A stretch of DNA of 64,000 nucleotides from Candidatus Levybacteria bacterium RIFCSPLOWO2_01_FULL_42_15 (GCA_001784055.1 MFOZ01000019.1:18593-82592), one strand, 5' to 3'; positions 10,382 to 39,937 are shown, counted from the first letter of the stretch. A program made the numbers and translations. The notes: a model not told the origin generated them from the sequence alone.

Positions 10382-10393
10382 AATGTTTTTATT

Positions 10394-11374: not shown

Positions 11375-11377
11375 ATT

Positions 11378-18846: not shown

Positions 18847-21300
18847 ATGCTTAATATAAAACAAGGTATAAAAAATCATAAAATTATTATTGCAATGGCG
18901 CTCGTTCTCTTTTCTATCCCTTTCTTTTGGCTAAAGCCGGGAGAAATAGATATGGGAGGAGACGGGGGAAGTCTGTATTTTTATGATCCTATTAATTTCA
19001 TAAAGCACTCTGCCATATTCGAAAGTCTTCCATTTGGGACAGGAGTAATAGATACGCAATTTTATTACTTGCCTTTCGTAACTCTCATCACGCTTCTAAA
19101 AATTTTTTTGTCATCGCATCTTTTAAGCATTCTGCATAATAGTACGAAGTTGGTTGTTGGTTTTCTTTCCATATATGGCATTATGAAAGTGTTGCTTTCT
19201 TTCTCAAGGGAGAAAAATGCTCTTTTACGAGAAAAATTTAAAAAAATAGAAATCGTTAGCATTCTTACAGGTATTTTTTATATATTTTTACCGGTACTTA
19301 CGATGGATGATAGGTATGTTAATCCTCTGTCAATCCATGACCAGGTATTTTTAAATCCTCTTATATTTTATCTGATGTTAAAGTTTATTCTTACAGAAAA
19401 ATGGAAATATCTCGTAATTGCATTAGGGGTTAGTCTGATTCTTTCTCATAATTTTTATATTGCCTCTCCATCTCTTTATGCATTTTATCCTTTCGCGTTT
19501 TTATTTCTCGTTCTTTATGTCAGAATTATATTAAAAAGAACATTACCAATAAAAAGGATAATAGTAGGGGTAGTTTTCTTTATTTTTCTGCATTTTTTTC
19601 ATTTGTGGCCTGAGATAGCAAACTTATTTAATTCGGGGTCCAACATCAATGTTCGAATATTTAGCAAAGAAGCATACAAACAACAGACGCAGTATTTCTA
19701 CGGCGTTATTCATATTGCAAGTCTTGCAAAAAGCATACTTTTGCCTTCAATTTCAGGAGGCGCGTGGTTGATTTTTGTCTTCATTAGTCCCCTTATTATC
19801 TTATTAGGTTTTTTGAAGAACAGGTTTAGGTCAAGACTATTTTTGCTTACAGGATTATTTTTCTTAATTACGCTTTTTCTTATTTCGGCAAAAATTTCTT
19901 ACACGAGTATAAAACTGTACGAAATGTTTTTTTTATATATACCGGGATTTGGTATGTTTCGGAATTTTTATATCCAATGGATATATGTATTTGCATTTTT
20001 TTACACGCTTATGTTCGGACAAGCGCTTTATTTAATTTACTCCTCACTTGATAATAAAAAAGTTAATCTTATTTCTCTAATGTTGGCGATCTATCTTATT
20101 GGTAGCGCTTGGCTATTTATAAACGGTCATCAATTTAATCCTCCTTATGTTGATTCAGATAATGTGAGAAGACATCTCGTTATGGATCCCGAATATGAAA
20201 AGATGCTTGAGTTTATCCGAAATGTACCATATGATGGTAAATTACTTCAATTTCCCTTTAATGATTTTAATCATCAGGTTGTTCATGGAATAGGTGATGG
20301 TGCGTATATTGGCGCCACATCAATAGGACAACTTACGGGAGTTAAGGATTTTTCAGGTTATTGGCATACGGCTCCATATAGCCAGGCATTTCTTGAGTCA
20401 AGTAAAAAAAAGGATTACGAAACATTAATAAAAATCCTTGGGCTTTTAAATATCCGTTATATTTTTTATAATTCTGATCCAAGAGTTTACGATACTACTT
20501 TCACCGGCCGACCGTTTACTTACGTAAGGCAATTTCTTCCTTCGACTCAAAAGGATTATAAGGAGTTTATAAAACCATTGGTAGGGGAGAAACTGTTTGA
20601 AGCTGGTTCTTATAGTCTCTATTTAACAAAAAAAGAATCATATATTCCTCAGATGTATATTCCTAAAGTATCAATGGCTTACAAACACAATCCAAAGTAC
20701 GATAGGTATTATGAAGGAGCATCTTCCTTTATTTTAAATAATAAACAAGATGAGAAAAGAGTGGCTTATATAGAAAAGAACGATTGTAGCGGTAAGCCTT
20801 TCCTGCAAACCTTTTGTGAAAGAAATGTTTTCTATGAGGGAGCGATGCCAAAAATATATTTTAAAAAAATTAATCCAACAAAATATAAAGTTACAATTTC
20901 AGATATACAAAATCCATTCCTTTTAGTTTTTTCAGATACTTTTAATCGCAATTGGAAACTTTTTATTGGCAAAAACAATCCCTTAGAAGAATCCAACGCA
21001 AAAATATATTTCAATGGTGAGATTAGAGAGGAAAAGTCTGAGAATATTTTTATTGATAAAAAAACTTTTGAAACAATCGGATTGAAAAATATACCTGAAG
21101 AACAACATTTTTCCGTGAACGGTTTTGCAAATGCTTGGTATGTACATCCAAAAGATATTGATATGCAACGAGAGGCGACCTTTATAGTAGAGATGATTGA
21201 TCAGCGGTCATTTTATTCTGCGCTTCTGTTATCCTTGATTGCACTTTGTGGGTTTTTTATTTGGGGAATTGTCCTTCTTCTAAGAAAACTTTTAATTTAG
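18847..21300 (+). CDS. Large polytopic membrane protein (817 aa) with C-terminal extracytoplasmic domain and terminal TM anchor; putative GT-C glycosyltransferase
   Basis: More than 12 N-terminal hydrophobic helices, a roughly 350-aa hydrophilic domain, and a final TM helix (ALLLSLIALCGFFIWGIVLLL). This architecture resembles arabinofuranosyl/mannosyl GT-C enzymes. Confidence 0.45.
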   Translation: MLNIKQGIKNHKIIIAMALVLFSIPFFWLKPGEIDMGGDGGSLYFYDPINFIKHSAIFESLPFGTGVIDTQFYYLPFVTLITLLKIFLSSHLLSILHNSTKLVVGFLSIYGIMKVLLSFSREKNALLREKFKKIEIVSILTGIFYIFLPVLTMDDRYVNPLSIHDQVFLNPLIFYLMLKFILTEKWKYLVIALGVSLILSHNFYIASPSLYAFYPFAFLFLVLYVRIILKRTLPIKRIIVGVVFFIFLHFFHLWPEIANLFNSGSNINVRIFSKEAYKQQTQYFYGVIHIASLAKSILLPSISGGAWLIFVFISPLIILLGFLKNRFRSRLFLLTGLFFLITLFLISAKISYTSIKLYEMFFLYIPGFGMFRNFYIQWIYVFAFFYTLMFGQALYLIYSSLDNKKVNLISLMLAIYLIGSAWLFINGHQFNPPYVDSDNVRRHLVMDPEYEKMLEFIRNVPYDGKLLQFPFNDFNHQVVHGIGDGAYIGATSIGQLTGVKDFSGYWHTAPYSQAFLESSKKKDYETLIKILGLLNIRYIFYNSDPRVYDTTFTGRPFTYVRQFLPSTQKDYKEFIKPLVGEKLFEAGSYSLYLTKKESYIPQMYIPKVSMAYKHNPKYDRYYEGASSFILNNKQDEKRVAYIEKNDCSGKPFLQTFCERNVFYEGAMPKIYFKKINPTKYKVTISDIQNPFLLVFSDTFNRNWKLFIGKNNPLEESNAKIYFNGEIREEKSENIFIDKKTFETIGLKNIPEEQHFSVNGFANAWYVHPKDIDMQREATFIVEMIDQRSFYSALLLSLIALCGFFIWGIVLLLRKLLI

Positions 21301-22006: not shown

Positions 22007-22933
22007 ATGATAAGTGTTGTTATTTCAGTTTACAACGAGGCAGAAAGCTTACATATCTTTTATGAACATCTTATACAAATAATAAAAATCTTAGATGAGC
22101 CATATGAAATTATCTTTATTGATGATGGATCAACCGATGGATCGTTTGAACTACTAAAGCAAATAGCGCAGAAGGATCGCCATGTGAGATTTTTTTCATT
22201 TAGAAAAAATCAAGGGAAGGCAGAAGCTTTAACGTTGGGTTTTCAAAAAGCAAGGGGTGACTATATTGTCACTCTTGATGCGGATTTGCAGGATAAGCCT
22301 TCCGAAATTCCAAGGCTTTTAGAAAAGGTGGAAGAGGGATGGGATGTGGTGTGCGGGTGGAGGAAAAATCGTAGGGACTCTTTTTCTAAAGTTATTTCTT
22401 CAAAAATTTTTAATAAGATCGCCTCGTTTTTCTGGCAATTACAGCTTCATGATTATAACTGCGGCTTAAAAGCATACGCCAAAGATGCGGCAAAAAGTTT
22501 GCATCTATATGGGGGGATGCATCGATTCATTCCGCTTCTTGCATTCCAGAATGGTTTTCGTGTATGCGAAATTCCTGTAGTTCACCAAAAGAGAAGATAT
22601 GGGAAGTCGAAGTATGGATTTTCAAAAATTTTCAAAGATATTCCAGACATATTTACCATGCTTTTTTTAGTACGCTATAGTAGTAGACCGCTTCATTTTT
22701 TTGGAATGATTGGAGGAATTCTGCTCTTTATCGGATTTTCTATTTTAGGTTATCTTAGTATAATTTGGTTTCAGGGTGAGTCAATAGGAAGAAGACCCCT
22801 CTTGTTTTTGGGCATGCTTCTTGTCTTAGGCGGGTTTCAAGTTTTTTTTACAGGGTTTTTAGCAGATCTTATGATTAGCTTATTTAATAAAGGTAAACAG
22901 GAATTTCCCTTAAAATACTCAAACGGTGAGTAG
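22007..22933 (+). CDS. Polyprenyl-phosphate glycosyltransferase (GtrB/ArnC/Dpm1-like GT2 with two C-terminal TM helices)
   Basis: Motifs ISVVISVYNE, DDGSTDGS, LDADLQD. C-terminal pair of TM helices, characteristic of the Und-P-sugar synthase subfamily. Confidence 0.8.
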   Translation: MISVVISVYNEAESLHIFYEHLIQIIKILDEPYEIIFIDDGSTDGSFELLKQIAQKDRHVRFFSFRKNQGKAEALTLGFQKARGDYIVTLDADLQDKPSEIPRLLEKVEEGWDVVCGWRKNRRDSFSKVISSKIFNKIASFFWQLQLHDYNCGLKAYAKDAAKSLHLYGGMHRFIPLLAFQNGFRVCEIPVVHQKRRYGKSKYGFSKIFKDIPDIFTMLFLVRYSSRPLHFFGMIGGILLFIGFSILGYLSIIWFQGESIGRRPLLFLGMLLVLGGFQVFFTGFLADLMISLFNKGKQEFPLKYSNGE

Positions 22934-23781: not shown

Positions 23782-24330
23782 ATGAAAATAGGAATTGATG
23801 TAAGCCAGCTGGTATATTCTAACACTGGAGTAGCAAACTACTTAGAGAACTTGGTTCAATGTTTGCTTAAGGTTGATAAGGAGAATGAGTACGTATTCTT
23901 CTTTTCCTCTTTAAGAAGAAAATTTCTAATTTCTAATTTCAAATTTTTAAATAAATCCCAATTTTTAAATCCCAAAATTAAGATAAATACATTTAAAATA
24001 CCGCCTGTTTTATTAGATTTCCTTTGGAATAGGTTGCATATTGTACCAATAGAGTGGTTTATTGGAGATGTTGATGTATTTATTTCCTCGGATTGGACGC
24101 AGCCACCTACTAAAAAAGCCAAAAAAGCGACGATTCTGTACGATCTTATTGTGCATAAATATCCCAATGAAACGGACAAAAAAATTGTAGATACGCAAAG
24201 AAGAAGACTTACGTGGGTGAAAAAAGAATGCGATGTGGTATTTTGTATATCGGAATCAACAAAAAAGGATGCGATGGAGATTCTGGGAATTGAGAAGAGA
24301 AAGCTAAAGGTTATTTATCCCGGGATTTAA
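23782..24330 (+). CDS. Truncated GT4-family glycosyltransferase paralog (N-terminal Rossmann domain only)
   Basis: MKIGIDVSQLVYSNTGVANY... aligns with the N-domain of the downstream full-length GT4 (MIIGIDGNEANVQRRVGISEY...). It ends at KVIYPGI, the linker VVTYPGV in the full-length copy. No C-domain follows in any frame. Confidence 0.5.
   Translation: MKIGIDVSQLVYSNTGVANYLENLVQCLLKVDKENEYVFFFSSLRRKFLISNFKFLNKSQFLNPKIKINTFKIPPVLLDFLWNRLHIVPIEWFIGDVDVFISSDWTQPPTKKAKKATILYDLIVHKYPNETDKKIVDTQRRRLTWVKKECDVVFCISESTKKDAMEILGIEKRKLKVIYPGI
23921..23948. repeat. Heptanucleotide tandem repeat (AATTTCT)2(AATTTCA)(AATTTTT) inside the truncated GT4 CDS
   Basis: Direct reading of sequence 23921-23948, followed by a second AAATCCCA duplication. 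Confidence 0.8.
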
Positions 24331-24381: not shown

Positions 24382-25566
24382 ATGATAATAGGTATTGATG
24401 GGAATGAGGCGAACGTACAGAGACGAGTAGGTATTTCGGAGTACGGCTTCGAACTTCTTAAGAATTTCAAATTTCAAATTTCAAATTTCAAATTTCAAAT
24501 TTACCTTAAAAAGCCTCCCTTGCCTCATATGCCTAAGGAACGAGACGGATGGCGATATAGAATTGTTCGGCCAGAAAAGTTATGGACGCAGATAGGTCTA
24601 CCGATCGATTTGTTCTTTCATAAGCCTCGTCCGGATGTGTTTTTTAGCCCCACGCATTACGCTCCTCGTTTTTCTCCTGTTAACTGCGCAATTTCAATCA
24701 TGGACGTATCGTATTTGCGTTTTCCTTCTCTGTTTAATGCGTCGGATTTGTATCAGCTCAAGAACTGGACCGCTTATTCGGTAAAAAAAGCAGTGAAAAT
24801 CTTTACCATAAGTAAATCAAGTAAAAATGATATAATAAAAGCGTATGGTGTGTCTGAAGAAAAAGTAGTGGTGACATACCCGGGAGTAAAATTCAAAAAT
24901 ATGGTTCGACAAACTCACCATCCTGAGCAAAGTCGAAGGACAATGCAAAATTCAAAAGTACTAGAGAAATACGGAGTTGATAGGAATTATGTTCTTTTTG
25001 TTGGGACGCTGCAACCAAGGAAGAACATTGAACGGCTCATCGAAGCCTTCAGCCTTGTTTGTCATCCTGAACTTGTTTCAGGATCTCAATCAAAACGAGA
25101 TTCTGACCTTCGTCAGAATGACATCCAACTTATAATCGTTGGCAAGAAAGGATGGCTGTACGAGGACATCCTAGAGGCGCCCAAAAAATTTGGAGTAGAA
25201 AATAGCGTCAAGTTTCTGGAGTTTGTTCCAGAAGAGGATCTTTCGAGCCTCTATCAAAATGCTCTTTTTTTTATTCTTCCCAGTTTATACGAAGGGTTTG
25301 GGTTGCCGGTGCTTGAGGCAATGAGCTACGGGTGTCCTGTAATAACCAGTAATGTGAGTAGTCTTCCTGAAGTAGGGGGAGATGCGGTTCTGTACGTAGA
25401 TCCGTTAAGTACAAGTGATATCTGTGAAAAAATGAGGATGATATTTTTGGATGAAAAGCTTCGCGCCGAACTTCAAAAAAAGGGATACGAGCAGGTTAAA
25501 AAGTTCAACTGGGAAAAAACAGCAAAACAGACACTTGATATTTTAGAAAATCTCGCGCAAAAATAA
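24382..25566 (+). CDS. GT4-family (glycosyl transferase group 1) glycosyltransferase
   Basis: N-domain MIIGIDGNE... C-domain motifs LFVGTLQPRKNIERLIEAF, FILPSLYEGFGLPVLEAMSYGCPVITSNVSSLPEV (E-x7-E). Confidence 0.85.
   Translation: MIIGIDGNEANVQRRVGISEYGFELLKNFKFQISNFKFQIYLKKPPLPHMPKERDGWRYRIVRPEKLWTQIGLPIDLFFHKPRPDVFFSPTHYAPRFSPVNCAISIMDVSYLRFPSLFNASDLYQLKNWTAYSVKKAVKIFTISKSSKNDIIKAYGVSEEKVVVTYPGVKFKNMVRQTHHPEQSRRTMQNSKVLEKYGVDRNYVLFVGTLQPRKNIERLIEAFSLVCHPELVSGSQSKRDSDLRQNDIQLIIVGKKGWLYEDILEAPKKFGVENSVKFLEFVPEEDLSSLYQNALFFILPSLYEGFGLPVLEAMSYGCPVITSNVSSLPEVGGDAVLYVDPLSTSDICEKMRMIFLDEKLRAELQKKGYEQVKKFNWEKTAKQTLDILENLAQK
24463..24504. repeat. Heptanucleotide tandem repeat (AATTTCA)x5 plus AATTTAC inside the GT4 CDS
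   Basis: Direct reading. Encodes NFKFQISNFKFQIY. The unit length is not a multiple of 3. Confidence 0.9.
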
Positions 25567-25569
25567 TCT

Positions 25570-26127
25570 ATGATACTGTTCAGAATAAAAAGAAGAATTA
25601 TGGCAATTCTTCTTGAGCTTGAAGTGATGTTTCTCCACGGAGTAGGCAATATTCCGTCTCATCATCTGCGAAGATTTTTTTATAGAGCCTGCGGTATAAA
25701 GATCGGTTGCGGGTCAACGATCCATACGGAGGCAAAATTCTACAACCCGTCAAATATACGGATAGGAGAAGATACAATCATAGGTGAAGGGGTTGTTCTT
25801 GATGGGAGAGAGAAACTATCTATTGGAAACCATGTCGCAATCGCCTCCGAAGTCATGATATATAATGCAGAGCATGATGTTCAAAGTGAAGATTTTCATG
25901 CAGTAATGGAGCCGGTTGTTATTGAGGATTATGTCTTTATTGGGCCGCGAGCGATTATTCTTCCGGGGGTTACGGTTAAAAAGGGAGCAATTATTGCGGC
26001 AGGAGCGGTGGTAACCAAAGATGTTGAGCCATTTGATATCGTTGCAGGCGTACCGGCAAAGCCAATCGGCAAACGCAATTTTAGCAATCCACAGTATCAA
26101 CTGGGAAGAGCTGCTTGGTTTCGATAA
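25570..26127 (+). CDS. Hexapeptide-repeat acyl/acetyltransferase (WbbJ-like)
   Basis: Left-handed beta-helix repeats ([15 protein letters not shown]...[13 protein letters not shown]; [25 protein letters not shown]). Confidence 0.7.
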
Positions 26128-26999
26128 AGCGCATGGTAGACATATCAATTGTTATTGCAACTTTTAACACAAAAGACCTAACTCGTGCCTGTATTCATTC
26201 GATTATTTCTTCTTACCCAAAAGAATTCCGCGAAAAAAAGTTTGAAATCATTCTTGTTGATAACGCGTCAAGCGATGGGACGGCTGATGAGATTAAGGGT
26301 GAATTTGGGGATATAAACGTATTGCAAAACAAAACGAATGTCGGATTTGCAGCTGCGTGTAACCAAGGCGTAAAAGACGCAAAAGGAGCGTATTTTTTAT
26401 TCCTTAATTCCGACACAAGAACAACAAAGAAAAGCAACTTAAATGACTTAATTGATAAGATGAGAGAAAATACCACCATAGGGATAATTGGGGGTGCTCT
26501 TGTAAGTGAGGAAGGGTTAGTGCAGAAGTCTTATGGATCTTTTTATCATCTTTTGGAGCTCATTAAGGTCTTATTCACAGGGAAAAAGAAGGGGCGAGTT
26601 TTGTCTATAGAGTCTTTTGTCGATTGGGTGAGCGGGGGGTTTATGTTGACCAAAAAGAGCCTATTTCAAGCTCTTAACGGATTTGACGAGCATTTTTTTA
26701 TGTACTTGGAAGATATGGAGTTTTGCTACCGGGCTTCTCAAAAAGGACACAAGGTTTTATATGCTCCGTGGGCAAAAGTTTTTCATAAGGAACACGGAAG
26801 CTCAAGTAGATCGTTTGCCATTGGAGAAATTTATAAAGGCATTCTATACTTTTATAGAAAACATAAAAACGGATTTTTACTTATACTTGTAAAAGGGATG
26901 TTGTTATTAAAAGCTCTTGTTGCAATGGGAATTGGCGTTGTAAGCGGAAATAAATATCTTTTTTCTACATATAAAAACGTCCTTCGTTACGCATTATGA
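26115..26999 (+). CDS. Glycosyltransferase family 2 (rhamnosyltransferase/WbbL-like)
   Basis: [13 protein letters not shown]...[11 protein letters not shown]; LNSDT; [16 protein letters not shown]. The start could alternatively be the Met at 26133. Confidence 0.8.
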
Positions 27000-29900
27000 A
27001 TATTGTTAGGTGGATCGTAAATAATATTTTCTTTCTTGCAACACTTTTTTTACTTGCGTTTATTCCTCTTTATCCCAAAATCCCACTTTTGGATGTTGAG
27101 AACACATGGGTTTATATTAGATTAGAAGATGTTATCGTTGTATTTGTTTTTTTGATTTGGATTACTTTTTTCTTATTTAAGAAAGTTACGCTAAAAACTC
27201 CGCTAACATTACCCATAATTCTATTTTGGATTATTGGTGGATTAGCAACTCTTCATGGAATACTCCTGATTTTTCCTACTATTGCCAATGTTTTTCCTAA
27301 TGTAGCCTTTTTAAGTTTTTTAAGGAGAATAGAGTACCTATTTTTATTCTTTGTTGCTTTTGCCGCTATGAAGATAAAGACGCATATATTCTACGTTGCT
27401 GCGACATTGGTAGTAGTTCTTCTTTTGGTTGTGGGGTATGGAGTTGGACAGAAATTCCTTGAATTCCCGGCGTATTTAACCATGAATGAAGAATTCGCTA
27501 AGGGAATTCCTATACAGCTCTCACAACTTTCGCGAGTTCCGTCTACGTTTGCGGGTCATTATGATCTGGCTGCATATTTGGTTCTCGTGATTCCTCTTAT
27601 TGTTAGTATGGCTTTTGGATTTAAAAATTTGCTTATAAAGATTTTTTTATTGATATCTGCTTCTTTAGGTTTTGGTCTTATTTTTATGACCGTATCTCGA
27701 GTTTCATTTTTTGTGCTTTTACTTTCCATGATTATGCTTTTAATTCTTCAGAAAAAAAGATTGCTTATATTTTCTTTTTTCTTAATAGTGCTTGTATTTT
27801 TAAGTTTTTCTCCAAGTCTTCTTGCGCGTTTTGGAAGTACGGTTTCAGAGGTTGATGTGTTGGTTGATTCTTCTAGCGGGGCGGCAATTGGACACGTGAA
27901 AGATGTCCCGGCTGAATATTTCAAGGATAAAGTTGTTTTGAGGCAGCCCGCTTCAAAAGAAGAATCTCATGTGGCTAGTTCTTCTGCGATATTACCTTTT
28001 TTATTCATCCCGGAAGTAGCATCTCTTGTTGTGGAAGAAAACACTCTAACAGGAGAAAACCTGCCACAGGGAACCAGTTACATAAATCTTCCCCTCTCGC
28101 CTGTTACCAAAAAGATAGGGCAATTTTTCTACCAAAAATCGAATGATCCAAAAACAGCGGAAGTGCGTGTTTTTTATGGAGATTTTCTTGTAAAAAGAGC
28201 CAAAGCGTACGATCTTTCGTTCACCACCCGATTTCAGGGAGAATGGCCAAAGACAATTGCGGCATTCAAGAGAAATATTTTTTTAGGTAGCGGCTATGGC
28301 TCTGTGAGCCTTGCCGTTGACAATAACTATTTACGGATATTAGGAGAATCGGGATTGCTTGGATTTGTAGCTTTTATATCAATCTTTTTAACCGCCGGTA
28401 TATATATAAAAAGGGTATTGCCGAGCGTTGATTCTCCTGTTGTCCGAAGTTTTGTTTTGGGCTTTGTTGCCGGCACATTCGGATTAGCCCTAAACGCAGT
28501 GCTTATTGATGTTTTTGAGGCGTCCAAAATTGCTTTCACATATTGGCTCTTAATGGGTGTAACAATTGGTGTTTTGCAATTGTACAAGAAGGAAAAGATA
28601 GATTTTTTTAAAGAGTTCATAAAGGTAGTAAGCTCTCCCTACGCAATTATTATGTATCTTTTTATTGTCACGGTACTATTGTTTTATTCAGCTTCAAGCT
28701 ACTATTTTGTGGGTGATGATTTTACATGGCTTCGATGGGTTTCGGATGGATATTTTAAGAATGGGATACTCAGTTATTTTACAGAGGCTAATGGATTTTT
28801 CTATCGGCCCGGAGCCAAGCTATATTTCTCCTTAATGTATTCAGCATTTTGGCTTAATCAGGTAATGTATCATGCGGTGTCGATTTTTCTCCATTTCCTT
28901 GTTGCGGGATTTATATTTTTGATTTCCAAAAGAATCTTAAAAGACGTCTTTTTATCTACGGCTACCGCGTTTCTGTTTCTAATTATGAGCGGATATTCTG
29001 AGGCAGTTTTTTGGATTTCTTCCACGGGCTTTCTTTTTAACGCGGTGTTTGCGCTTTCTAGCCTACTGTTTTATATGTTCTGGAAAGAAAAGAGGAGAAA
29101 AATTTTCTTTATTCTTTCGTTTTTTTGCATTGCCTTAAGTCTTCTGTTTCATGAAATTGGCATTATTACGCCTTTGTTAATTATACTGTATGATCTTGTT
29201 TTTGTTGAAAAGCAATTTAGCCTGGGACTTTTACAAAAAAAACGCTATTATTTTGTCTTTCTTTCTCCCCTTATTCCCTATCTTGCGTTGCGGTACGCGG
29301 CTAACAGTCACTGGTTTAGCGGCGATTACAGCTACAACCTATTAAAGCTTCCTTTTAACAGTATTGGTAATATAATTGGTTATTTATCTCTTTCTCTCTT
29401 TGGTCCCATGTCGTTATCTCTCTATTCAGGGTTTAGAAGTATCTTACGAGAGCACGTTGTTATTTCGGCAGTAGCATTAACAATATTAGCCTGTATTACC
29501 GTTTTTTTCTATCGAATGGTTATGAAAAAGATGGCAAAAGAAGATGCAAAAATTGTCGTTTTTGGATTTTTGTTTTTTATAATCGCGCTCGCGCCATTTT
29601 TAGGGCTAGGGAATATTTCTTCTCGCTATAGTTATTTATCTTCTTTTGGGCTTGTCCTTCTTTCTGTATTCTTTCTTAAGAAGACATACGGTTTCCTTCT
29701 TGTCAACGGGCGAGGTATTGCCGTGACGAGCGTCATTATCATTGTTCTTATATTTTCCTTTCTCCACCTGATGCAGTTGCAAAAAATAAATTCGGATTGG
29801 AAAGTTGCCGGTGAAAAATCAAAAAAGTTTTTGGTCTCATTTAGCGATATATATCCGGATTATCAAATAAAAGGAAAGATGCAATTTTATTTTGTCAATG

Positions 29901-30133
29901 TACCGATTCGTGTAGGAGATGCGTGGGTGTTTCCTGTTGGCTTGGGTGATGCGTTGTGGTTTATTCTCAAAAATGAAGATCTTGCGGTGTATCAAGTGCA
30001 GTCGAGCAAAACCGCGCTTGATCTGGCAGAAACGTCAGAAAGAAGTAAAGTCTTTATGTTTGATACCCGTGCGGCCGTTTCCGAAGTGCGAAGAACAGAC
30101 AATGGCGATATTATTTACCTGAATGCGAAATAA
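26996..30133 (+). CDS. 1045-aa polytopic membrane protein: N-terminal O-antigen-ligase/polymerase-like (Wzy_C-type) module fused to a C-terminal ArnT/PMT-like GT-C module
   Basis: Residues about 1-540 have about 12 TM helices with an O-antigen-ligase-like region (...FMTVSRVSFFVLLL...) and a large loop. Residues about 540-1045 form a second TM bundle starting YYFVGDDFTWLRW, resembling GT-C family-39/83 N-termini. Confidence 0.55.
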   Translation: MNIVRWIVNNIFFLATLFLLAFIPLYPKIPLLDVENTWVYIRLEDVIVVFVFLIWITFFLFKKVTLKTPLTLPIILFWIIGGLATLHGILLIFPTIANVFPNVAFLSFLRRIEYLFLFFVAFAAMKIKTHIFYVAATLVVVLLLVVGYGVGQKFLEFPAYLTMNEEFAKGIPIQLSQLSRVPSTFAGHYDLAAYLVLVIPLIVSMAFGFKNLLIKIFLLISASLGFGLIFMTVSRVSFFVLLLSMIMLLILQKKRLLIFSFFLIVLVFLSFSPSLLARFGSTVSEVDVLVDSSSGAAIGHVKDVPAEYFKDKVVLRQPASKEESHVASSSAILPFLFIPEVASLVVEENTLTGENLPQGTSYINLPLSPVTKKIGQFFYQKSNDPKTAEVRVFYGDFLVKRAKAYDLSFTTRFQGEWPKTIAAFKRNIFLGSGYGSVSLAVDNNYLRILGESGLLGFVAFISIFLTAGIYIKRVLPSVDSPVVRSFVLGFVAGTFGLALNAVLIDVFEASKIAFTYWLLMGVTIGVLQLYKKEKIDFFKEFIKVVSSPYAIIMYLFIVTVLLFYSASSYYFVGDDFTWLRWVSDGYFKNGILSYFTEANGFFYRPGAKLYFSLMYSAFWLNQVMYHAVSIFLHFLVAGFIFLISKRILKDVFLSTATAFLFLIMSGYSEAVFWISSTGFLFNAVFALSSLLFYMFWKEKRRKIFFILSFFCIALSLLFHEIGIITPLLIILYDLVFVEKQFSLGLLQKKRYYFVFLSPLIPYLALRYAANSHWFSGDYSYNLLKLPFNSIGNIIGYLSLSLFGPMSLSLYSGFRSILREHVVISAVALTILACITVFFYRMVMKKMAKEDAKIVVFGFLFFIIALAPFLGLGNISSRYSYLSSFGLVLLSVFFLKKTYGFLLVNGRGIAVTSVIIIVLIFSFLHLMQLQKINSDWKVAGEKSKKFLVSFSDIYPDYQIKGKMQFYFVNVPIRVGDAWVFPVGLGDALWFILKNEDLAVYQVQSSKTALDLAETSERSKVFMFDTRAAVSEVRRTDNGDIIYLNAK

Positions 30134-30137
30134 TTAC

Positions 30138-31598
30138 ATGATACGCAAAAAAGAAATAATAGCTCTTTTTCTTATTCTTACTTTGGGTTTTATCGTTCGG
30201 CTCTATAAGTTTACTAATCCTATTGCCGACTGGCATTCGTGGAGACAATCAGACACGTCTTCCGTATCCAGAAACTTTGTGAAATACGGGTTTGATCTTC
30301 TTCATCCACGGTTTGATGATCTATCTAACGGCGTGTCGCTTCTTGACAATCCGAAAGGATACCGTTTCGTAGAATTTCCAATCTACAACGTGTTTCAAGC
30401 CGGACTCTTTGAGTTGTTTCATACGTTTACTATTGAAGAGTGGGGTCGATTAGTTAGTATTGCGTCAGTTTTGATTGCAACGGTTTTTCTCTATCTTTTG
30501 GTGAGGGAATATGTATCTTCTCGCGCAGGTCTTTTTGCCGCATTTTTTTACGCACTCCTTCCGTATAATATTTATTTCGGTCGCGTTATCTTGCCGGATA
30601 CGCTGATGGTTGCCTTCATGCTTGGGGGGTTATATTTTTTTGATGCGTGGACAAAAAAAATCAAAACAAATCAAAAACGCGTTCAGGCACTCTTATTTTT
30701 TATGCTCGCGGTTCTGTTTACAGCATCTGCTATTCTTATCAAACCGTTCGTTCTATTCTACGGATTAGCTTTTGTTTATATTCTCATAAAAAGATTTGGA
30801 TGGCGTTTACTGAAGCGATGGGATATATGGCTGTTTGCGATTCTTTGCCTTTTGCCCTTTGTTCTTTGGAGAGCGTGGATGCAGCAATATCCGGAAGGAA
30901 TTCCTAGAAACGATTGGCTATACAATGGGAATGGGATCCGTTTTAGAGGAGCATTTTTTTGGTGGATTTTTGCGGAACGAATTGGAAAAAACATGCTTGG
31001 ATATTGGGGCCTTCCCATTATTGTTATTGGACTTATTTCTAAAATAAAAGAGAAAGATACTTGGTTCTTTTTTACCTTTATTATTGCGTCTCTTCTTTAT
31101 ATAAGCGTATTTGCAACAGGGAATGTTCAGCATGATTATTACCAGATTCTTATTGTGCCAACGCTTGCCATTTTTTTTGCCAAGGGAGCAGAAGCAATCG
31201 TTGAATTTTCTTCCCATGCCTTCCATAAATTCCTCGCCTTAGCAACGTTTGCGATCTGTGTTGTCTTTATGTTTATGTTTGGGTGGAGAGAAATCAGGGC
31301 ATTTTACAACATTGATCATCCGGAAATTGTTGAAGCAGGGCGCGCGATTGACGCGCTTACCCCAAAAAATGCAAAGATTATTGCGATATACAACGGAGAT
31401 ACAACCTTTCTCTATCATACAAATAGACAAGGATGGCCAGTCTTTGAAAGATCTATAAAAGATTTTGTAAAGGCAGGGGCAACCCACATAGCGTTTGTAA
31501 ATCAAGGAGAAAAAGAATCAAACTTTGCAAATGAATTTAATACGGTCAAAGTAACAGAACGATATGCAATATTTGATCTTACAAAAAAGAAAAAATGA
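30138..31598 (+). CDS. GT-C-type membrane glycosyltransferase, family 39/ArnT/PMT-like
   Basis: Start IRKKEIIALFLILTLGFIVRLY..., then a WRQSDT loop motif, then about 11 TM helices. Start taken at the Met after the upstream stop. Confidence 0.6.
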   Translation: MIRKKEIIALFLILTLGFIVRLYKFTNPIADWHSWRQSDTSSVSRNFVKYGFDLLHPRFDDLSNGVSLLDNPKGYRFVEFPIYNVFQAGLFELFHTFTIEEWGRLVSIASVLIATVFLYLLVREYVSSRAGLFAAFFYALLPYNIYFGRVILPDTLMVAFMLGGLYFFDAWTKKIKTNQKRVQALLFFMLAVLFTASAILIKPFVLFYGLAFVYILIKRFGWRLLKRWDIWLFAILCLLPFVLWRAWMQQYPEGIPRNDWLYNGNGIRFRGAFFWWIFAERIGKNMLGYWGLPIIVIGLISKIKEKDTWFFFTFIIASLLYISVFATGNVQHDYYQILIVPTLAIFFAKGAEAIVEFSSHAFHKFLALATFAICVVFMFMFGWREIRAFYNIDHPEIVEAGRAIDALTPKNAKIIAIYNGDTTFLYHTNRQGWPVFERSIKDFVKAGATHIAFVNQGEKESNFANEFNTVKVTERYAIFDLTKKKK

Positions 31599-32881
31599 AC
31601 ATTTTAGTTGTTTCCTCTTTTTTGCCGTATCCTTTGTTTTCAGGGGGACATATCCGCCTTTACAGCATTATAAAAGAGCTTTCTAGAAGGCATACCATAA
31701 CGCTTATCTGCGAAAAGAGAAAGCATCAGACAGAAGATGACGTAAAAGAGGTTGAGAAAATTTGCGAGGTAATCTGGGTTGAGCGAAAACAACAATGGTC
31801 AATAAAGAATATTCTTCAAGCAGGATTCTCTCCATACCCTTTCTTAATGACAGGGCACACAAATTCGGAAATGAAGAAAAGAATAGAGGATGTTTTGAGA
31901 CAAAGAAAAATCGATGTAATCCACATTGAGACATTTTACGTCTACCAAAACATGCCCCGGGTTTTGATTCCGACCGTTTTGGTGGAGCATAACATAGAGT
32001 ATTTAGTTTATAAACGATTTGCCGATTCGGCTCCAAAATTCATAAAACATCTTCTCCTTTTGGATATATTAAAGATGCGGTATTGGGAGCAAAAATTTTG
32101 GCAGAAAGCAACAAAGCTTGTTGCCGTATCGGAGCAGGAAAAAAACATGATGACAAGAGACGATGTAGCAGTGGTACCAAATGGGGTAGACGTAAATAAG
32201 TTCAAAGTCAGGCGTTCAGAGTTAAAAGTTAACGATAGAGAAAAGAGAGTTTTATTTATTGGGGATTTTCGGTGGATTCAAAATAGGGATGCGCTTGAAT
32301 GGATTCTCAAAGAGATATGGCCGGAAATAAGTTCAAAGTTCCCCACTTCGCCAAGGCTTCGAGGGGCGAGCGAAGTTCAAAGTTCCCCAGCCTCGCCAAG
32401 CGAAGCCTCGCCAAAGGCGGGCGAAGCAGGGCGGGCAAAGTTATTGCTTTGGATTGTAGGCAGAGACATTCCAAGTTCGCTTAAAAAGCTCACTAAGGAT
32501 GATAGCATTATGTTTGATGAGAACGCATCAGAAAATACTACCGAAATCTTCAAAAAAGCGGACATATTGCTTGCGCCGATACGCATTGGCGGTGGGACAA
32601 GCTTTAAGATTTTAGAGGCTATGGCAAGCGGTGTTCCTGTGGTGACAACGTCTCTTGGTATAGAAGGAATAGGCGCAATAAAAAATAAAGAAGTACTTAT
32701 TGCGAATACATCATATGAATTTGGAGAAGAAACAAATAGAGTTCTGCGAAATCCCCATCTTTATAAAGAGCTTGCAGGAAACGCGCGTAAACTCATTGAA
32801 GAGAAGTATGATTGGGACGTTATTGTTAAAAAACTGGAAGATGTATATACGTCTGCCGTATATCATGCAGGGGCAATATGA
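31595..32881 (+). CDS. GT4-family glycosyltransferase carrying an in-frame GC-rich repeat-element insertion
   Basis: N-domain MNILVVSSFLPYPLFSGGHIRLYS. C-domain LLAPIRIGGGTSFKILEAMASGVPVVTT. A low-complexity insert, SSKFPTSPRLRGASEVQSSPASPSEASPKAGEAGRAK, interrupts the EIWPEI...LLLWIVG junction. Confidence 0.8.
   Translation: MNILVVSSFLPYPLFSGGHIRLYSIIKELSRRHTITLICEKRKHQTEDDVKEVEKICEVIWVERKQQWSIKNILQAGFSPYPFLMTGHTNSEMKKRIEDVLRQRKIDVIHIETFYVYQNMPRVLIPTVLVEHNIEYLVYKRFADSAPKFIKHLLLLDILKMRYWEQKFWQKATKLVAVSEQEKNMMTRDDVAVVPNGVDVNKFKVRRSELKVNDREKRVLFIGDFRWIQNRDALEWILKEIWPEISSKFPTSPRLRGASEVQSSPASPSEASPKAGEAGRAKLLLWIVGRDIPSSLKKLTKDDSIMFDENASENTTEIFKKADILLAPIRIGGGTSFKILEAMASGVPVVTTSLGIEGIGAIKNKEVLIANTSYEFGEETNRVLRNPHLYKELAGNARKLIEEKYDWDVIVKKLEDVYTSAVYHAGAI
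32329..32442. repeat. Tandem pair (44 bp + 70 bp) of a GC-rich intragenic repeat element; second copy at 48419-48487
   Basis: Both units start aagttcaaagttcccca. Unit 2 (ttcaaagttccccagcctcgccaagcgaagcctcgccaaaggcgggcgaagcagggcgggcaaagtt) matches the murE copy (ttcaaaattccccggcctcgctccgcgaagcctcgccaaaggcgggcgaagcgggacgggcaaaatt) nearly base for base. Confidence 0.85.
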
Positions 32882-33783
32882 TTGAGCTTTCCATTATCAT
32901 TGTCAATTTCAACACAAAAGATTTTATAAAACAGTGTATAGCCTCTATCATAGGTAGCTCATTTGAGAGAGAGTTTGAAATAATTGTTGTAGATAATGCC
33001 TCTACCGATGGAAGCGTTGAGGATATTCAGAAGACAACATCCTTAACGCAGAATTTTTTTCTTATTGAAAATAAAGAGAATGTTGGATTCTCCAAGGCAA
33101 ATAATCAGGGGATAGGTGTTGCGAAAGGATCCTATTTTCTTTTCTTGAATCCGGATACCGTTTTTTCAACCGATACTTTGGAAACTGTGATTTCTTTCAT
33201 GGAAAAGCACCCAGACGTTGGAGTGGCAACAGCAAGAATTAATCTTCCAAATGGAACGCTTGATGAGGCATGTCACAGGGGATTTCCTACTCCCTGGAAT
33301 GCATTTTGTTATTTTTCTTCTCTGTCTAAGCTCTGCCCCAAAAGCAAGCTTTTTGCAGGATATCAAATGGGCTGGTTGGATCTTTCTACAACCCATGAGG
33401 TTGAGTCGGTTTGCGGAGCATTTATGATGGTGTCAAGACAAGCGGGGGATCAGATCGGCTGGTGGGATGAGGATTATTTTTGGTACGGAGAGGATATTGA
33501 TTTTTGCTATCGCATAAAACAAAAAGGATTAAAAATATATTATATTCCCTCTGCGTCAATAACGCACTATAAAGGAGTATCGGGCGGAATTAAACAAATT
33601 TCCAAAAATATTGCAACTGCCTCAGAGACGATCAAAAGAAACTCCATGATAGCTCGATTTGAGGCAATGAGAATTTTTTATAAAAAACACTACAAAAAGC
33701 GTTATCCATGGTTTCTAACCCGTTTGGTCTTCGGCGCAATCGGCATATTGCGATTTTTTAACCTTTATACCCTTAGGAAGTAA
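32878..33783 (+). CDS. Glycosyltransferase family 2
   Basis: LSIIIVNFNTKDF...IIVVDNASTDGS; LNPDT; DEDYFWYGEDIDFCYR. Confidence 0.8.
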   Translation: MIELSIIIVNFNTKDFIKQCIASIIGSSFEREFEIIVVDNASTDGSVEDIQKTTSLTQNFFLIENKENVGFSKANNQGIGVAKGSYFLFLNPDTVFSTDTLETVISFMEKHPDVGVATARINLPNGTLDEACHRGFPTPWNAFCYFSSLSKLCPKSKLFAGYQMGWLDLSTTHEVESVCGAFMMVSRQAGDQIGWWDEDYFWYGEDIDFCYRIKQKGLKIYYIPSASITHYKGVSGGIKQISKNIATASETIKRNSMIARFEAMRIFYKKHYKKRYPWFLTRLVFGAIGILRFFNLYTLRK

Positions 33784-36121: not shown

Positions 36122-37203
36122 AAGTTGTTGTATTTGCAGGTGGAGTCGGAACAAGGCTGTGGCCGCTATCAAGGAAAAACACTCCAAAACAATTTGAAAA
36201 AATTATTGGTGATAAATCTACCCTGCAACAAACGATAGATAGACTTAGTTCAGTCGTAGGTACGTCAGATATCTATATTTCTACGGGAAAACACTATGAA
36301 GAAACGGTACGTGGACAGCTTCCCCAAATCCCTCAAGAAAACTTTATTTTCGAGCCCCAAATGCGAGACGTAGGGCCTGCCATTGGCCTTGCGGCATTTC
36401 TTCTTGAAAAACGCTATCCTAATGAACCAATGGCAATATTGTGGAGCGATCACTACGTAAAAAATCTTGAATCTTTTAAGAAGGCGCTTGCTATGGCGCA
36501 GGACATAATTTCCGCAAAAAGGGGAAATTTTGTGTTTTTGGGACAAAAACCTCGATTTGCGAATCAAAATATCGGTTGGATAGAACTGGGAGAAAAAATA
36601 GATGAAAAAGAACAATTGTCTCTCTACGGTTTTAGGCATCTTAAGTATCGTCCTAAGCCTTCCGATGCCGTTTCTTTTTTTCAAAACAGCGGCACGTATA
36701 TATGGAATCTTGGATATTTTGTAACCACCCCCCGCTTTTTGATCCATCAATTCGGGATGTACGTGCCCGAAATGTACGCAAGTCTTCGTAAAATCCAGAG
36801 CGGGTGGGGGACAGAATCTTTTGAGAAAATACTTGGGGAAATATATCCTACCCTGGAGAAGATAAGCTTTGATGACGCAATTCTTGAGAAGCTGACATCT
36901 GAGGGCGTTTTTGTAGTAGCGGCTGACTTGCAGTGGAGCGATGTAGGAGCGTGGGAAGCCCTCAAGGAAGCTTTGAGTCAAACAGATGATGAAAATGTAA
37001 CTCGGGGCAAGGTAATGCTTGAGGACAGCAGGGATAGCCTTGCGTTTAATTATACAAATCAGCTATGCGTAGGGATTGACTTGAGCCAAATGCTTATAGT
37101 TTCAACAGAGGATGTCATATTGGTATGTCCTAAAACATCAGTTCCCAAGATTAAAAAATTAGTAGAGAAGCTGTCAGGAACTCCGAATGAGCACCTCACA
37201 TAA
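36118..37203 (+). CDS. manC: Mannose-1-phosphate guanylyltransferase (GDP-mannose pyrophosphorylase, no PMI domain)
   Basis: MKVVVFAGGVGTRLWPLSRKNTPKQF signature. 361 aa. Confidence 0.75.
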   Translation: MKVVVFAGGVGTRLWPLSRKNTPKQFEKIIGDKSTLQQTIDRLSSVVGTSDIYISTGKHYEETVRGQLPQIPQENFIFEPQMRDVGPAIGLAAFLLEKRYPNEPMAILWSDHYVKNLESFKKALAMAQDIISAKRGNFVFLGQKPRFANQNIGWIELGEKIDEKEQLSLYGFRHLKYRPKPSDAVSFFQNSGTYIWNLGYFVTTPRFLIHQFGMYVPEMYASLRKIQSGWGTESFEKILGEIYPTLEKISFDDAILEKLTSEGVFVVAADLQWSDVGAWEALKEALSQTDDENVTRGKVMLEDSRDSLAFNYTNQLCVGIDLSQMLIVSTEDVILVCPKTSVPKIKKLVEKLSGTPNEHLT

Positions 37204-37870
37204 CGCGCAATACAAAGAGGTTGAAAAGAGTACGCTTTATGAATACACAAAGCGATGTATTGACGTTGTTTTTTCTGTGACCCTTTTTATCTTGTTTTCC
37301 CCTATTCTCTGTATTCTTGCCATTGTCGTAAAGCTTGATTCAAAAGGGCCTGTTCTTGCCGATACTCCTGAAAGAGTTGGAAAAAGCGGAAAGTTGTTCA
37401 AAATGCATAAACTGCGCTCTATGGTTGAGAACGCGCACGAGCTCTTAAGAGAAAGCCCACAATTCCAAAAGTTATTTGAGACCTATAAAAAAGAAAGCTA
37501 TAAGTTGCGAAACGATCCTCGAATAACAGGAGTGGGTGGCTTTATCCGCAAGCATTCATTGGATGAGGTTCCGCAGCTCATAAATGTAATAAAAGGAGAA
37601 ATGAGCTTGGTTGGCCCCCGTGCATATTATCCCGATGAGCTTGTGGATCAACAAAGGAAATATCCGTACACAAAGCAAGCAGTAAAGATAGTGCTCTCGA
37701 TACGGCCTGGAATCACGGGTTTTTGGCAGGTTTCCGGAAGAAGCGAGGTAAATTTTGACAAGCGTATTCAGATGGATGCGAATTACGTAAAAAGACGTTC
37801 TATTCTTTATGACTTATGGATTATCGCAAAAACGCCTTGGGCAATGATTTCAGGCAAAGGCGCCCTGTAA
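37187..37870 (+). CDS. Small monotopic phosphoglycosyl transferase (PglC/WbaP C-terminal-domain-like bacterial sugar transferase), initiating enzyme
   Basis: Single N-terminal TM ([21 protein letters not shown]). Motifs KFRSM-like ([10 protein letters not shown]), DELPQL, SLVGPRA. Confidence 0.85.
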
Positions 37871-37945: not shown

Positions 37946-39937
37946 ATGGAAGAATTGCGTAAAATTGATTTAGAGAAAGAGTACGCGCCTGTTGCAAATA
38001 AACAACCGGTTCCTCGTCAGCCAATAGCTCTTCGAAATAACCTGCCAATACCCGTGAAAAAGTCAAAAAGAAGAACAGTTATACTCCTCATTTCTGCTTT
38101 TCTTATGGGATTTTTGATCATCGGCATTGGGCTTTCTGCTCAAAAAACATATTCTTCCGCACTTGCGACCTATAAGCAGGCAAAGCTTGCATGGAGTGCA
38201 ATCAAAAATCAAGATGTGGAACTTGCCGCGGGAGAACTTGCAAAAACAAAACAAGAGTTAGAAAAAACTCAAAAAAATCTTCAATCTTTTTCTTACGCCC
38301 GTTTTATCCCTCTTGTGGGAATCTACTACAGCGATGCGGATCATTTGATAAAAGCGGGGCTTCATGGTATTAATGCGGCAACAATCATAATTGATGCGGT
38401 TGCGCCTTATGTAGATGTCTTAGGGTTAAAAGGGAAAGGAAGTTTTGTCATGGGCCCTGCGGAAGAAAGGATTAAAACGGCGGTTCTTACCATGGGCAAA
38501 ATAACTCCTCGTGTTGATGAGCTGACAGATACTTTAATTTTGGCCCAACAGGAGGTTGATAAGGTTAATCCAAACAGGTATCCGGGCATATGGGGAATCA
38601 CAAAAATAAAAAAACAACTGACCACACTTCGTGAATCAGTGGATAGCGCGGTAGCATTCGCAGATGAAGCGCGTCCCTTAGTAAAAGTGCTTCCGTCTCT
38701 TTTAGGAGAATCGGAAGAAAAGAAATACCTCGTGCTCTTTCAAAATGATAAAGAGCTGCGGCCCACCGGAGGATTTATAACCGCATATGGCGTTTTTTCT
38801 GCGGACAAAGGAGTGATTCGGGCACAAGACTCAAGCGACATTTATAATCTTGATAATAGTATTCGCTCCAAACCAAAAGCACCGGAGCCCATTCTTAAAT
38901 ATCTTCCAAACGTGAATGTATGGCATTTGAGAGACACCAACCTCTCTCCCGATTTTGTGGAATCCATGCTTGCGTTTAACTCGTTATATAAAAAGGCTCC
39001 GGGTAACGTTGATGTAGATGGAATTATTGCCTTGGATACCCAAGTATTAGTTTCAACTATTAAGATTCTTGATGATGAGGTAGTGGCGGGAGGAATTACA
39101 TTTACCAGCAAAAATGATTCTCGTTGTGACTGTCCCCAGGTTATTTATGAGCTGGAAAGGCTTATTTCTACCCCCAAAAGCCTAGATTTGCGCGTAACTT
39201 CGCTTGTCCAAGTTCAAGCTCAGCGTAAAGACTTCTTGGGTGTTCTTCTTGATGCCATTATGCAAAAAGCTCTTAAATCTTCCCCAAAGTTATATTGGGG
39301 ACCATTGGTTCAGTCATTTATAACCCAAACGCATGAGAAGCACATACTCTTTTATCTATATGACAAGGAGGCCCAAAGGGGAGTGGAGGCGCTCAATGCG
39401 GCAGGAAGGATTAAGTTATTTGAAGGAGATTACCTGCACATAAACGACGCAAACTTTGGAGGAGCAAAGTCAAATTTATATGTTGAACAATCAGTTGATC
39501 AAAACATTGAGGCTTCAAACGATGGAGTGATTAAAAAGACCGTTACTATTAAGTATAAGAATCCGCGCTCTCCCTCCGATTGTAATCTGGAGCGCGGAAG
39601 ACTTTGTCTCAATGCAGTATTAAGAGATTGGGTGCGCGTATACGTTCCTAAAGGAAGCAGGCTTTTGGATAGCAAAGGGTCAGAAGTAAAAGTGACAAGC
39701 TACGAAGAGCTGAATAAAACCGTATTTGAAGGGTTTCTGACCGTCCGGCCGCTTGGCTTGGCAACGTATACGCTTACCTATCAACTTCCCTTTAAGGTGA
39801 AAAAGAACTCCCATCTTCCTCTTCTTGTTCAAAAACAGCCGGGGACTAATGCGAATCAATATACAATTAACGTAAACGAAAAAAAGGTAGAACAGTTTCC
39901 GCTTACAACAGACAGAGAGCTAAAACTTCAGTTATAA
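37946..39937 (+). CDS. DUF4012-family membrane-anchored extracytoplasmic protein
   Basis: N-terminal TM (VILLISAFLMGFLIIGIGL). Conserved core LVLFQNDKELRPTGGFITAYGVF typical of DUF4012. 663 aa. Confidence 0.6.
   Translation: MEELRKIDLEKEYAPVANKQPVPRQPIALRNNLPIPVKKSKRRTVILLISAFLMGFLIIGIGLSAQKTYSSALATYKQAKLAWSAIKNQDVELAAGELAKTKQELEKTQKNLQSFSYARFIPLVGIYYSDADHLIKAGLHGINAATIIIDAVAPYVDVLGLKGKGSFVMGPAEERIKTAVLTMGKITPRVDELTDTLILAQQEVDKVNPNRYPGIWGITKIKKQLTTLRESVDSAVAFADEARPLVKVLPSLLGESEEKKYLVLFQNDKELRPTGGFITAYGVFSADKGVIRAQDSSDIYNLDNSIRSKPKAPEPILKYLPNVNVWHLRDTNLSPDFVESMLAFNSLYKKAPGNVDVDGIIALDTQVLVSTIKILDDEVVAGGITFTSKNDSRCDCPQVIYELERLISTPKSLDLRVTSLVQVQAQRKDFLGVLLDAIMQKALKSSPKLYWGPLVQSFITQTHEKHILFYLYDKEAQRGVEALNAAGRIKLFEGDYLHINDANFGGAKSNLYVEQSVDQNIEASNDGVIKKTVTIKYKNPRSPSDCNLERGRLCLNAVLRDWVRVYVPKGSRLLDSKGSEVKVTSYEELNKTVFEGFLTVRPLGLATYTLTYQLPFKVKKNSHLPLLVQKQPGTNANQYTINVNEKKVEQFPLTTDRELKLQL

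Follow-up and report, generated by a model that had tools for sequence, protein, structure and literature searches.

One reading frame encodes two membrane modules

We analyzed a 64,000-nucleotide stretch of DNA from Candidatus Levybacteria bacterium RIFCSPLOWO2_01_FULL_42_15 (GCA_001784055.1, MFOZ01000019.1:18593-82592), which we call the window and from whose first letter all positions are counted. At 26996..30133 on the plus strand lies a gene for a protein of 1045 amino acids, and we judge that its product is probably a bimodular integral-membrane glycosyltransferase (GT) that arose by fusion of two neighboring genes of one operon. An earlier note on this DNA had described the gene as a single open reading frame (ORF) that places two distinct transmembrane (TM) bundles in one polypeptide. 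The ORF listing agrees, giving one frame from an ATG at 26996 to a stop codon at 30131-30133, and relatives keep the full-length architecture. The ATG shares the tetranucleotide ATGA with the TGA of the upstream GT2 gene, and the 3′ codons run into, or directly up to, the start of the PMT_2 gene downstream; such junctions are typical of a translationally coupled operon.

The two bundles were likewise recovered, both by hydropathy and in an AlphaFold2 model of the full-length protein. This model was built on 57 family members, and its mean pLDDT (predicted local distance difference test) is 82; its pTM (predicted template modeling score) of 0.83 indicates that the overall arrangement is confidently predicted. 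The first bundle comprises 12 TM helices within residues 1-530 (26996..28585, +; hereafter the N-module) and carries a large loop at residues 272-452. The second comprises about 11 TM helices within residues 548-952 (28637..29851, +) and is followed by an α/β domain of about 90 residues, which together form the C-module. Between them stands a basic linker, KKEKIDFFKEFIKVVSS (residues 531-547, 28586..28636, +), in which a loop assigned by hydropathy to residues 531-543 holds five Lys or Arg residues. The linker is free of gaps and constant in length across the family alignment, its position coincides with the gene boundary of relatives in which the halves are split, and GC content is even across the junction (0.365-0.376).

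The fusion is conserved and replaces an adjacent gene pair

A long ORF of this kind could be an artefact, in which two adjacent genes are joined by a missed stop codon or by a frameshift introduced during sequencing or assembly; the earlier note had pointed to the region near residue 540 as the place to look, and had proposed looking for the fusion in related genomes. The halves do in fact exist as separate adjacent genes in some relatives. Against an artefact, at least 120 full-length proteins of 989-1071 amino acids, from many sources, turned up among 5.8 billion proteins searched; they are 58-74% identical to the query over 95-100% of its length, and several are named Candidatus Levybacteria. 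When genomes were scanned, one for each species, at least 583 stretches proved to encode a relative, and those with a title belong to Levy-, Gottesman-, Roizman- or Woesebacteria or to the "Patescibacteria group". In 80 species-representative loci from independent assemblies we checked the reading frame, and both halves lay in one stop-free frame in all 80, which shows that the fusion is no frameshift artefact. With a linker conserved without gaps, and with split forms that come from another lineage and reach just 27-39% identity, we consider an artefact exceedingly improbable. The fusion is kept across Microgenomates-type Patescibacteria. Many third-party metagenome-assembled genome (MAG) records that carry the operon (L009, L010, L012, L017 and others) are titled "uncultured Gammaproteobacteria bacterium", which is almost certainly a placeholder or a mislabel.

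The split forms show where the fusion came from. In one locus (L002) a 539-residue gene product is 35% identical to the N-half over its full length (E 3e-92); its gene is followed, after a gap of 7 nucleotides, by a gene for a 510-residue C-half homolog and then by an ortholog of the PMT_2 gene of the window. Two NCBI MAGs (L003 and L004) have the order GT4-GT4-Hexapep-GT2-[527 aa]-[485 aa]-PMT_2-GT4-GT2, with a 4-nucleotide overlap between the N-half and C-half genes, and the 527-residue protein of these loci shares 39% identity with the N-half (E 8e-101). The N-half, C-half and PMT_2 genes stand in the same order in L005 and L086. This gene order, with one gene at its center, recurs in the window and in the majority of the 80 fused loci, so that the 1045-residue protein is a fusion of a conserved, adjacent and co-translated pair. 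The fusion replaces the adjacent, 4-nucleotide-overlapping gene pair of more distant relatives. Standalone N-half homologs of 500-540 residues are abundant in Patescibacteria, where they are named "O-antigen ligase family protein". A search with the C-half only returned mostly fragments at contig edges and a few complete standalone proteins of about 485-520 residues.

The N-module is a divergent Wzy_C-type domain

The model shows residues 1-530 in the 12-TM fold of WaaL and other Wzy_C proteins, which belongs to class GT-C_B. Large extracytoplasmic loops between TM9 and TM10 characterize this fold, and the corresponding loop of the N-module (residues 272-452, 27809..28351, +) contains the motif VSLAVDNNYLRILGES and the invariant residues R278, D406, R412, D442, R447 and E451. 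Further invariant residues of the module are R235, in a TxSR motif, D505, E508 and K511. Within the loop, DSSP assigns strands in the model to a β-rich insertion of about 120 residues (283-406, 27842..28213, +; pLDDT 39 to 86).

The earlier note had called this half O-antigen-ligase-like. The relatives bear this out: Wzy_C was matched in all ten representatives that we scanned (E 2e-8 to 7e-5), though the window protein itself matches in two pieces that reach 15.9 bits (E 0.011), with a Pfam cut-off of 31.7 bits, and only P0227 (33.8) and P0208 (34.6) among the ten exceed it. In the relatives, profile positions 1-71 fall near residues 221-284 and positions 63-149 near residues 401-465; the break in the match corresponds to the β-rich insertion. 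We conclude that fold and relatives, rather than its own Pfam score, support placing the N-module with Wzy_C/GT121.

Conserved Arg residues for pyrophosphate binding and a motif His define the Wzy_C/GT121 family. The best PDB profile match of the N-half family, 9rmk_A (a 610-residue "Oligosaccharyltransferase"), is not significant (E 0.28) and serves as a lead only; it covers the catalytic motif and sets the His of an SHN sequence opposite the invariant D442 of VDNNYLR. Compared with the O-antigen ligase WaaL (GT121; Wzy_C PF04932; PDB 7tpg/7tpj), the N-module shares a big outward TM9-TM10 loop with conserved Arg residues, and its family gives weak but consistent Wzy_C matches. Unlike WaaL, to which it is 12% identical, it scores below the Pfam threshold, is interrupted by the β-rich insertion, has Asp442 where the weak alignment to an O-oligosaccharyltransferase (O-OTase) puts the motif His, and is fused to a second membrane enzyme. 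Patescibacteria are not known to make lipopolysaccharide (LPS). A lipid A-core acceptor is therefore unlikely, and the acceptor would have to differ from that of WaaL.

The C-module has a GT-C_A fold without a Pfam family

For residues 548-1045, the model shows the ArnT/PMT/STT3 (GT-C_A) fold, with the conserved N-terminal TM module and the variable module of that class, and a small α/β domain at the C terminus. Directly after the first helix of the C-module (548-568 in the model), the block YYFVGDDFTWLRW (residues 569-581, 28700..28738, +) opens outer loop 1. In it D575, F576, T577, W578 and W581 are invariant, and G573 and D574 are kept in at least 90% of the sequences. Conserved acidic residues in the first extracytoplasmic loop after TM1 mark GT-C_A enzymes, and D574/D575, a putative catalytic pair, occupy their canonical place. 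Additional motifs of the C-half are FFYRP (601-605), E669/W673, GDYSYN (776-781) and NIxSRYxY (873-880), and its invariant charged residues are D575, R604, E669, D777 and R877. A C-half model built on a more diverse alignment is highly confident, with a pLDDT of 91.7 and a pTM of 0.92. The strands and helices of the C-terminal domain (residues ~953-1045, 29852..30133, +) appear at 962-1041 in both models, and its motifs P970, A976/W977 and D985/W988 are kept.

Profile databases do not name this family. Pfam and NCBIfam gave no match to the C-half, and none to PMT, PMT_2 or MIR even at E≤1; the 43 members of the C-half alignment (A2) had no consistent Pfam match and likewise none to these three models, and we took stray single matches among them (EpsG, PTPS_related and others) as noise. 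The family is large by profile: an exhaustive search with the C-half profile reached 102,721 representatives at E≤1e-3, and 64,349 of these remained at the stricter E≤1e-10. Remote links to PMT_2 exist. The distant relative P0351 scores 29.6 bits against Pfam PMT_2 (threshold 26.1) and P0208 scores 23.1 bits, and hhalign relates the C-half family to the family of the downstream PMT_2 gene (Prob 74.7%, E 2.6e-5, 177 columns). These remain remote links only, and by Pfam the C-half belongs neither to PMT_2 (PF13231) nor to PMT (PF02366, GT39). Solved GT-C structures are 8-13% identical to the C-half, which is equally close to ALG12, STT3 and ArnT. From the earlier description of this half as an ArnT/PMT-like GT-C with a loop-1 motif, the fold and the motif stand, and membership in GT39 or GT83 by sequence does not; both features make the C-half a GT-C_A, but not a demonstrable member of either family.

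The comparison with characterized GT-C_A enzymes is accordingly mixed. ArnT (GT83), Pmt1/2/4 (GT39) and PMT_2 enzymes share with the C-module two acidic residues in outer loop 1, immediately after TM1; the distant profile kinship is to a genuine PMT_2 family; and, as in the ArnT system, an ArnC-like lipid-phosphate-sugar synthase gene lies nearby. Unlike ArnT and PMT proteins, the C-half lacks Pfam PMT, PMT_2 and MIR matches and has motifs (FFYRP, GDYSYN and NIxSRYxY) and a small C-terminal α/β domain of its own.

Both active sites are predicted to face outward

The earlier note had suggested an AlphaFold model to look for two folds, and had named the mapping of both halves to one known family as the outcome that would tell against it. 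The model has one GT-C_B-like and one GT-C_A-like bundle. The halves thus do not form a single family: each falls in its own GT-C subclass, though both are broadly GT-C. An hhalign comparison of the N-half alignment (A4) with A2 gave Prob 100%, which we rejected as an artefact: the match lies in template columns 3-141, before the start of the C-half, because some A2 sequences are pieces of fused proteins, cut off at contig edges, that retain the end of the N-half. No match was reported in the C-half columns.

The orientation of the modules can be predicted from hydropathy, the positive-inside rule and the helices of the model. Basic loops follow TM2 (KKVTLK), TM4 (KIKTH) and TM8 (QKKR), and the linker is basic as well. 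This alternation fits a 12-TM module with its N terminus inside, which would place the TM9-TM10 loop outside and the linker in the cytoplasm; a cytoplasmic linker would in turn put loop 1 of the C-module, with its Asp pair, outside. Both active sites, one with R235, R278, R412 and D442 at the TM9-TM10 loop and the other with D574/D575 in outer loop 1, would then face outward.

Only one of the modules might be catalytic, the other being a degenerate GT-C kept as a membrane scaffold or a substrate-binding partner. Three features could be read in this way: the canonical His of Wzy_C is apparently replaced by Asp442, the Wzy_C score is under threshold, and no Pfam model fits the divergent C-half. 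Asp is, however, a competent general base, and charged residues predicted to face outward are invariant in both modules down to about 30% identity (R235, R278, R412, D442, E451, D505 and E508 in the N-module; D575, R604, E669, D777 and R877 in the C-module). In addition, each half is conserved as a standalone gene. We find a one-module enzyme improbable; from their invariant charged residues, both modules look catalytically intact.

The fused gene is the center of a conserved glycan operon

Upstream of the fused gene, Pfam and NCBIfam identify a GT4 gene (24382-25566), a WcaF-like acetyltransferase gene (25570-26127) and a GT2 gene (26115-26999), and downstream a GT4 gene (31595-32881) and a GT2 gene (32878-33783), all on the plus strand. 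Directly after the fusion comes the downstream partner, a gene for a second GT-C_A enzyme of 491 residues from the PMT_2 family (30123..31598, +; Pfam PMT_2 7e-13), and in nearly all loci it occupies this place whether the pair is fused or split. Most of 85 loci show the gene order GT4>Hexapep>GT2>N>C>PMT_2>GT4>GT2.

About 30 kb around the fusion form a glycan-assembly cluster. It has many GT2 and GT4 genes, a GDP-mannose pyrophosphorylase-like gene, and sugar-nucleotide genes for a DegT aminotransferase, a PglD-like acetyltransferase, a fusion of nucleoside triphosphate (NTP)-transferase and HAD domains, a GHMP kinase, a SIS isomerase, a formyltransferase and methyltransferases. Two genes bear on the lipid-linked donors. 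The first (22007..22933, +) encodes an ArnC/PgfS/AglJ-like GT2, probably a polyprenyl-phosphate-sugar synthase, which matches NCBIfam PRK10714 over its full length (E 3.3e-54) at a score below the equivalog cut-off; at least 25 loci have an ortholog in their flanks, among them L001, whose sole family member is a standalone C-half homolog. The second (37187..37870, +) encodes a small phosphoglycosyl transferase of the Bac_transf/WbaP type (Pfam Bac_transf 2e-58; NCBIfam WbaP_sugtrans 4e-72). From their place in the cluster we infer that the ArnC-like GT2 may supply the donor for the GT-C_A modules, and that the WbaP-type transferase may initiate the undecaprenyl-diphosphate (Und-PP)-linked glycan that the N-module would use, giving one lipid-linked donor route for each fold class. 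The GT2s at 26115-26999 and 32878-33783 were also considered as GtrB/ArnC-like synthases and rejected, as their NCBIfam matches are closer to EpsD-, MftF- and rhamnosyltransferase-type GT2s. Promoter and terminator scans over 21-40 kb did no better than on shuffled sequence.

Several other features of the cluster are recorded here as separate observations. A 182-residue ORF at 23782-24330 (+), just upstream of the full GT4 gene, holds only the N-terminal GT4 domain (Glyco_transf_4). L003 and L086 have two full-length GT4 genes at its place, which suggests that it may be a truncated gene. A segment matching it occurs in 62 loci. The GT4 gene at 24382-25566 contains an in-frame palindromic insertion (25055-25130) that encodes VCHPELVSGSQSKRDSDLRQND and forms a strong hairpin (-26 kcal/mol, z -4.4); it is single-copy in the window at ≤3 mismatches. 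Similar low-complexity inserts, THHPEQSRRTMQ and SPRLRGASEVQSSPASPSEASPKAGEAGRAK, occur in GT4 genes (at ~24910-24945 and within 31595-32881), and these inserts may be small mobile or repetitive extragenic palindromic (REP)-like elements tolerated in coding sequence. Two polytopic membrane proteins, at 18847-21300 (+, 817 residues) and 15752-17263 (+, 503 residues), have no Pfam match even at E 0.1 and were not found in the 6-kb flanks of related loci; in the larger, an N-terminal loop with GGDGGSLYFYDP and a sizeable soluble domain suggest that it may be one more GT-C-type enzyme that lacks a label. At 9206-12040 (+), the NTP-transferase-HAD phosphatase fusion, the GHMP kinase and the SIS-domain isomerase stand in a row that resembles a heptose-nucleotide (GmhA/HddA/GmhB/HddC-like) pathway, which is unexpected in Patescibacteria that lack LPS. 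The cluster ends with a gene for a 663-residue DUF4012 protein (37946-39937, +), directly after the phosphoglycosyl transferase gene; housekeeping genes, for RecO, a class II aminoacyl-tRNA synthetase and MraW, follow.

A model for coupled transfer and decoration

Enzymes of class GT-C_B, which includes O-antigen ligases and SEDS proteins, use sugar-diphospholipid donors, and those of class GT-C_A (GT39, GT83, GT66 and others) use mostly lipid-phosphate-monosaccharide donors (PMC10920833). Most likely, then, the fused protein is a bimodular enzyme that would transfer or polymerize a lipid-diphosphate-linked glycan and would glycosylate that glycan, or its acceptor, from a lipid-phosphate-linked sugar. 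In this model, the WbaP-type transferase and cytoplasmic GT4 and GT2 enzymes would build an Und-PP-linked oligosaccharide. After flipping, the N-module would move it en bloc, either to another repeat unit (polymerization) or to a non-LPS acceptor (ligation). The ArnC-like GT2 would meanwhile make an undecaprenyl-phosphate (Und-P)-linked monosaccharide, which the C-module and the separate PMT_2 enzyme would put on the same glycan or its acceptor. The fusion would keep the outward active sites side by side and so couple the assembly and decoration of one surface glycopolymer. Fusion, adjacency and synteny make such functional coupling of the modules plausible.

Several results weigh against this model. 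Searches of the PDB by sequence and by profile, with the protein and with alignments A1, A2 and A4, gave nothing significant, the window protein falls short of the Wzy_C cut-off, and the C-half matches no Pfam or NCBIfam model. Some GT-C_A enzymes (STT3, PglB) use lipid-diphosphate-linked oligosaccharides, so the donor of the C-module is not fixed by its fold. No Wzx-type flippase and no Wzz or chain-length regulator was recognized in the window; a Wzy-type pathway is thus tentative, and the N-module may be either a polymerase or a ligase. Two loci depart from the pairing. In L001 a standalone C-half homolog has no N-half neighbor. On a Roizmanbacteria-type contig (L087:7001-10071), a gene for a Wzy_C-like protein of 508 residues is followed directly by a PMT_2-like gene, which seems split into ORFs of 327 and 163 residues, and no member of the C-half family was found at that locus. 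The partnership of the two halves is therefore frequent and not obligatory. The second locus also suggests that WaaL-like proteins and GT-C_A enzymes may be paired more widely among Patescibacteria.

The same architecture could instead serve protein O-glycosylation. An N-module of the PglL/TfpO type would move an Und-PP-linked glycan to Ser or Thr of a protein at the cell surface, for instance an S-layer protein or a pilin, and a PMT-like C-module would prime or decorate that protein. Wzy_C includes O-OTases as well as ligases, the insignificant best match 9rmk_A is annotated as an oligosaccharyltransferase, one family member is named "protein O-mannosyl-transferase" by the Joint Genome Institute (JGI), and a lipid A-core acceptor is unlikely for the reason given above. 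The C-half, however, is as near to ALG12 and STT3 as to ArnT and shows neither a MIR domain nor any further PMT hallmark in Pfam scans, and the N-module has an invariant Asp at the position aligned to the O-OTase His. Moreover, no candidate gene for an acceptor protein is conserved in the operon, and the cluster looks polysaccharide-like, with GT2, GT4, acetyltransferase and sugar-nucleotide genes. We regard protein O-glycosylation as possible but unlikely, and retain the model of a bimodular enzyme that assembles and decorates a surface glycopolymer.

Relation to known systems

Among bimodular ligases, WadA of Brucella and Mesorhizobium comes closest, an O-antigen ligase in which GT121 is fused to GT25 (PMC10920833). 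WadA likewise combines a GT-C_B module of the ligase type with another glycosyltransferase, presumed to work on that glycan too, and so sets a precedent for coupled action. Its partner domain, GT25, is soluble and depends on nucleotide sugars, whereas the partner here is a polytopic GT-C_A module that would use a lipid-linked donor at the outer face of the membrane.

In the three-component systems GtrA/GtrB/GtrC, CsbB/GtcA/YfhO and ArnC/ArnT, a GT2 that makes a lipid-phosphate-linked sugar works with an outward-facing GT-C that decorates an exported polymer. The arrangement in the window would functionally resemble these systems, with an ArnC-like GT2 and two GT-C_A modules. It differs in that no GtrA-type flippase was recognized in the window and in that a GT-C is covalently joined to the presumed polymer-transferring enzyme.

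The enzyme classes are known; what is new is the combination of modules and the unlabelled GT-C_A family. In the literature we found no paper on a fusion of a WaaL-like protein with a GT-C_A enzyme or on this Patescibacteria operon, and nothing pertinent on GT-C enzymes of Patescibacteria, which is weak evidence from a limited library. More tentatively, the protein might be the first described tandem of GT-C_B and GT-C_A in one polypeptide, a self-contained, outward-facing machine to polymerize or ligate and branch that uses Und-PP-glycan and Und-P-sugar donors at adjacent sites to make a Patescibacteria-specific envelope glycopolymer, with the C-half founding a new GT-C_A family.

Significance for the Patescibacteria envelope

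The database name "O-antigen ligase family protein" fits only half of the fused protein. A fold and a likely activity are now assigned to a large protein family that has no Pfam label, and the fusion acts as a "Rosetta stone" that predicts an interaction of the separate WaaL-like and GT-C_A genes in related lineages. Patescibacteria, also known as the candidate phyla radiation (CPR), are largely uncultured, and their cell envelope is almost unknown. The operon is conserved in hundreds of species, and its centerpiece joins two classes of glycosyltransferase with lipid-linked donors. The fusion is thus a testable handle on the surface glycan of these organisms and on how its assembly and decoration may be coupled.

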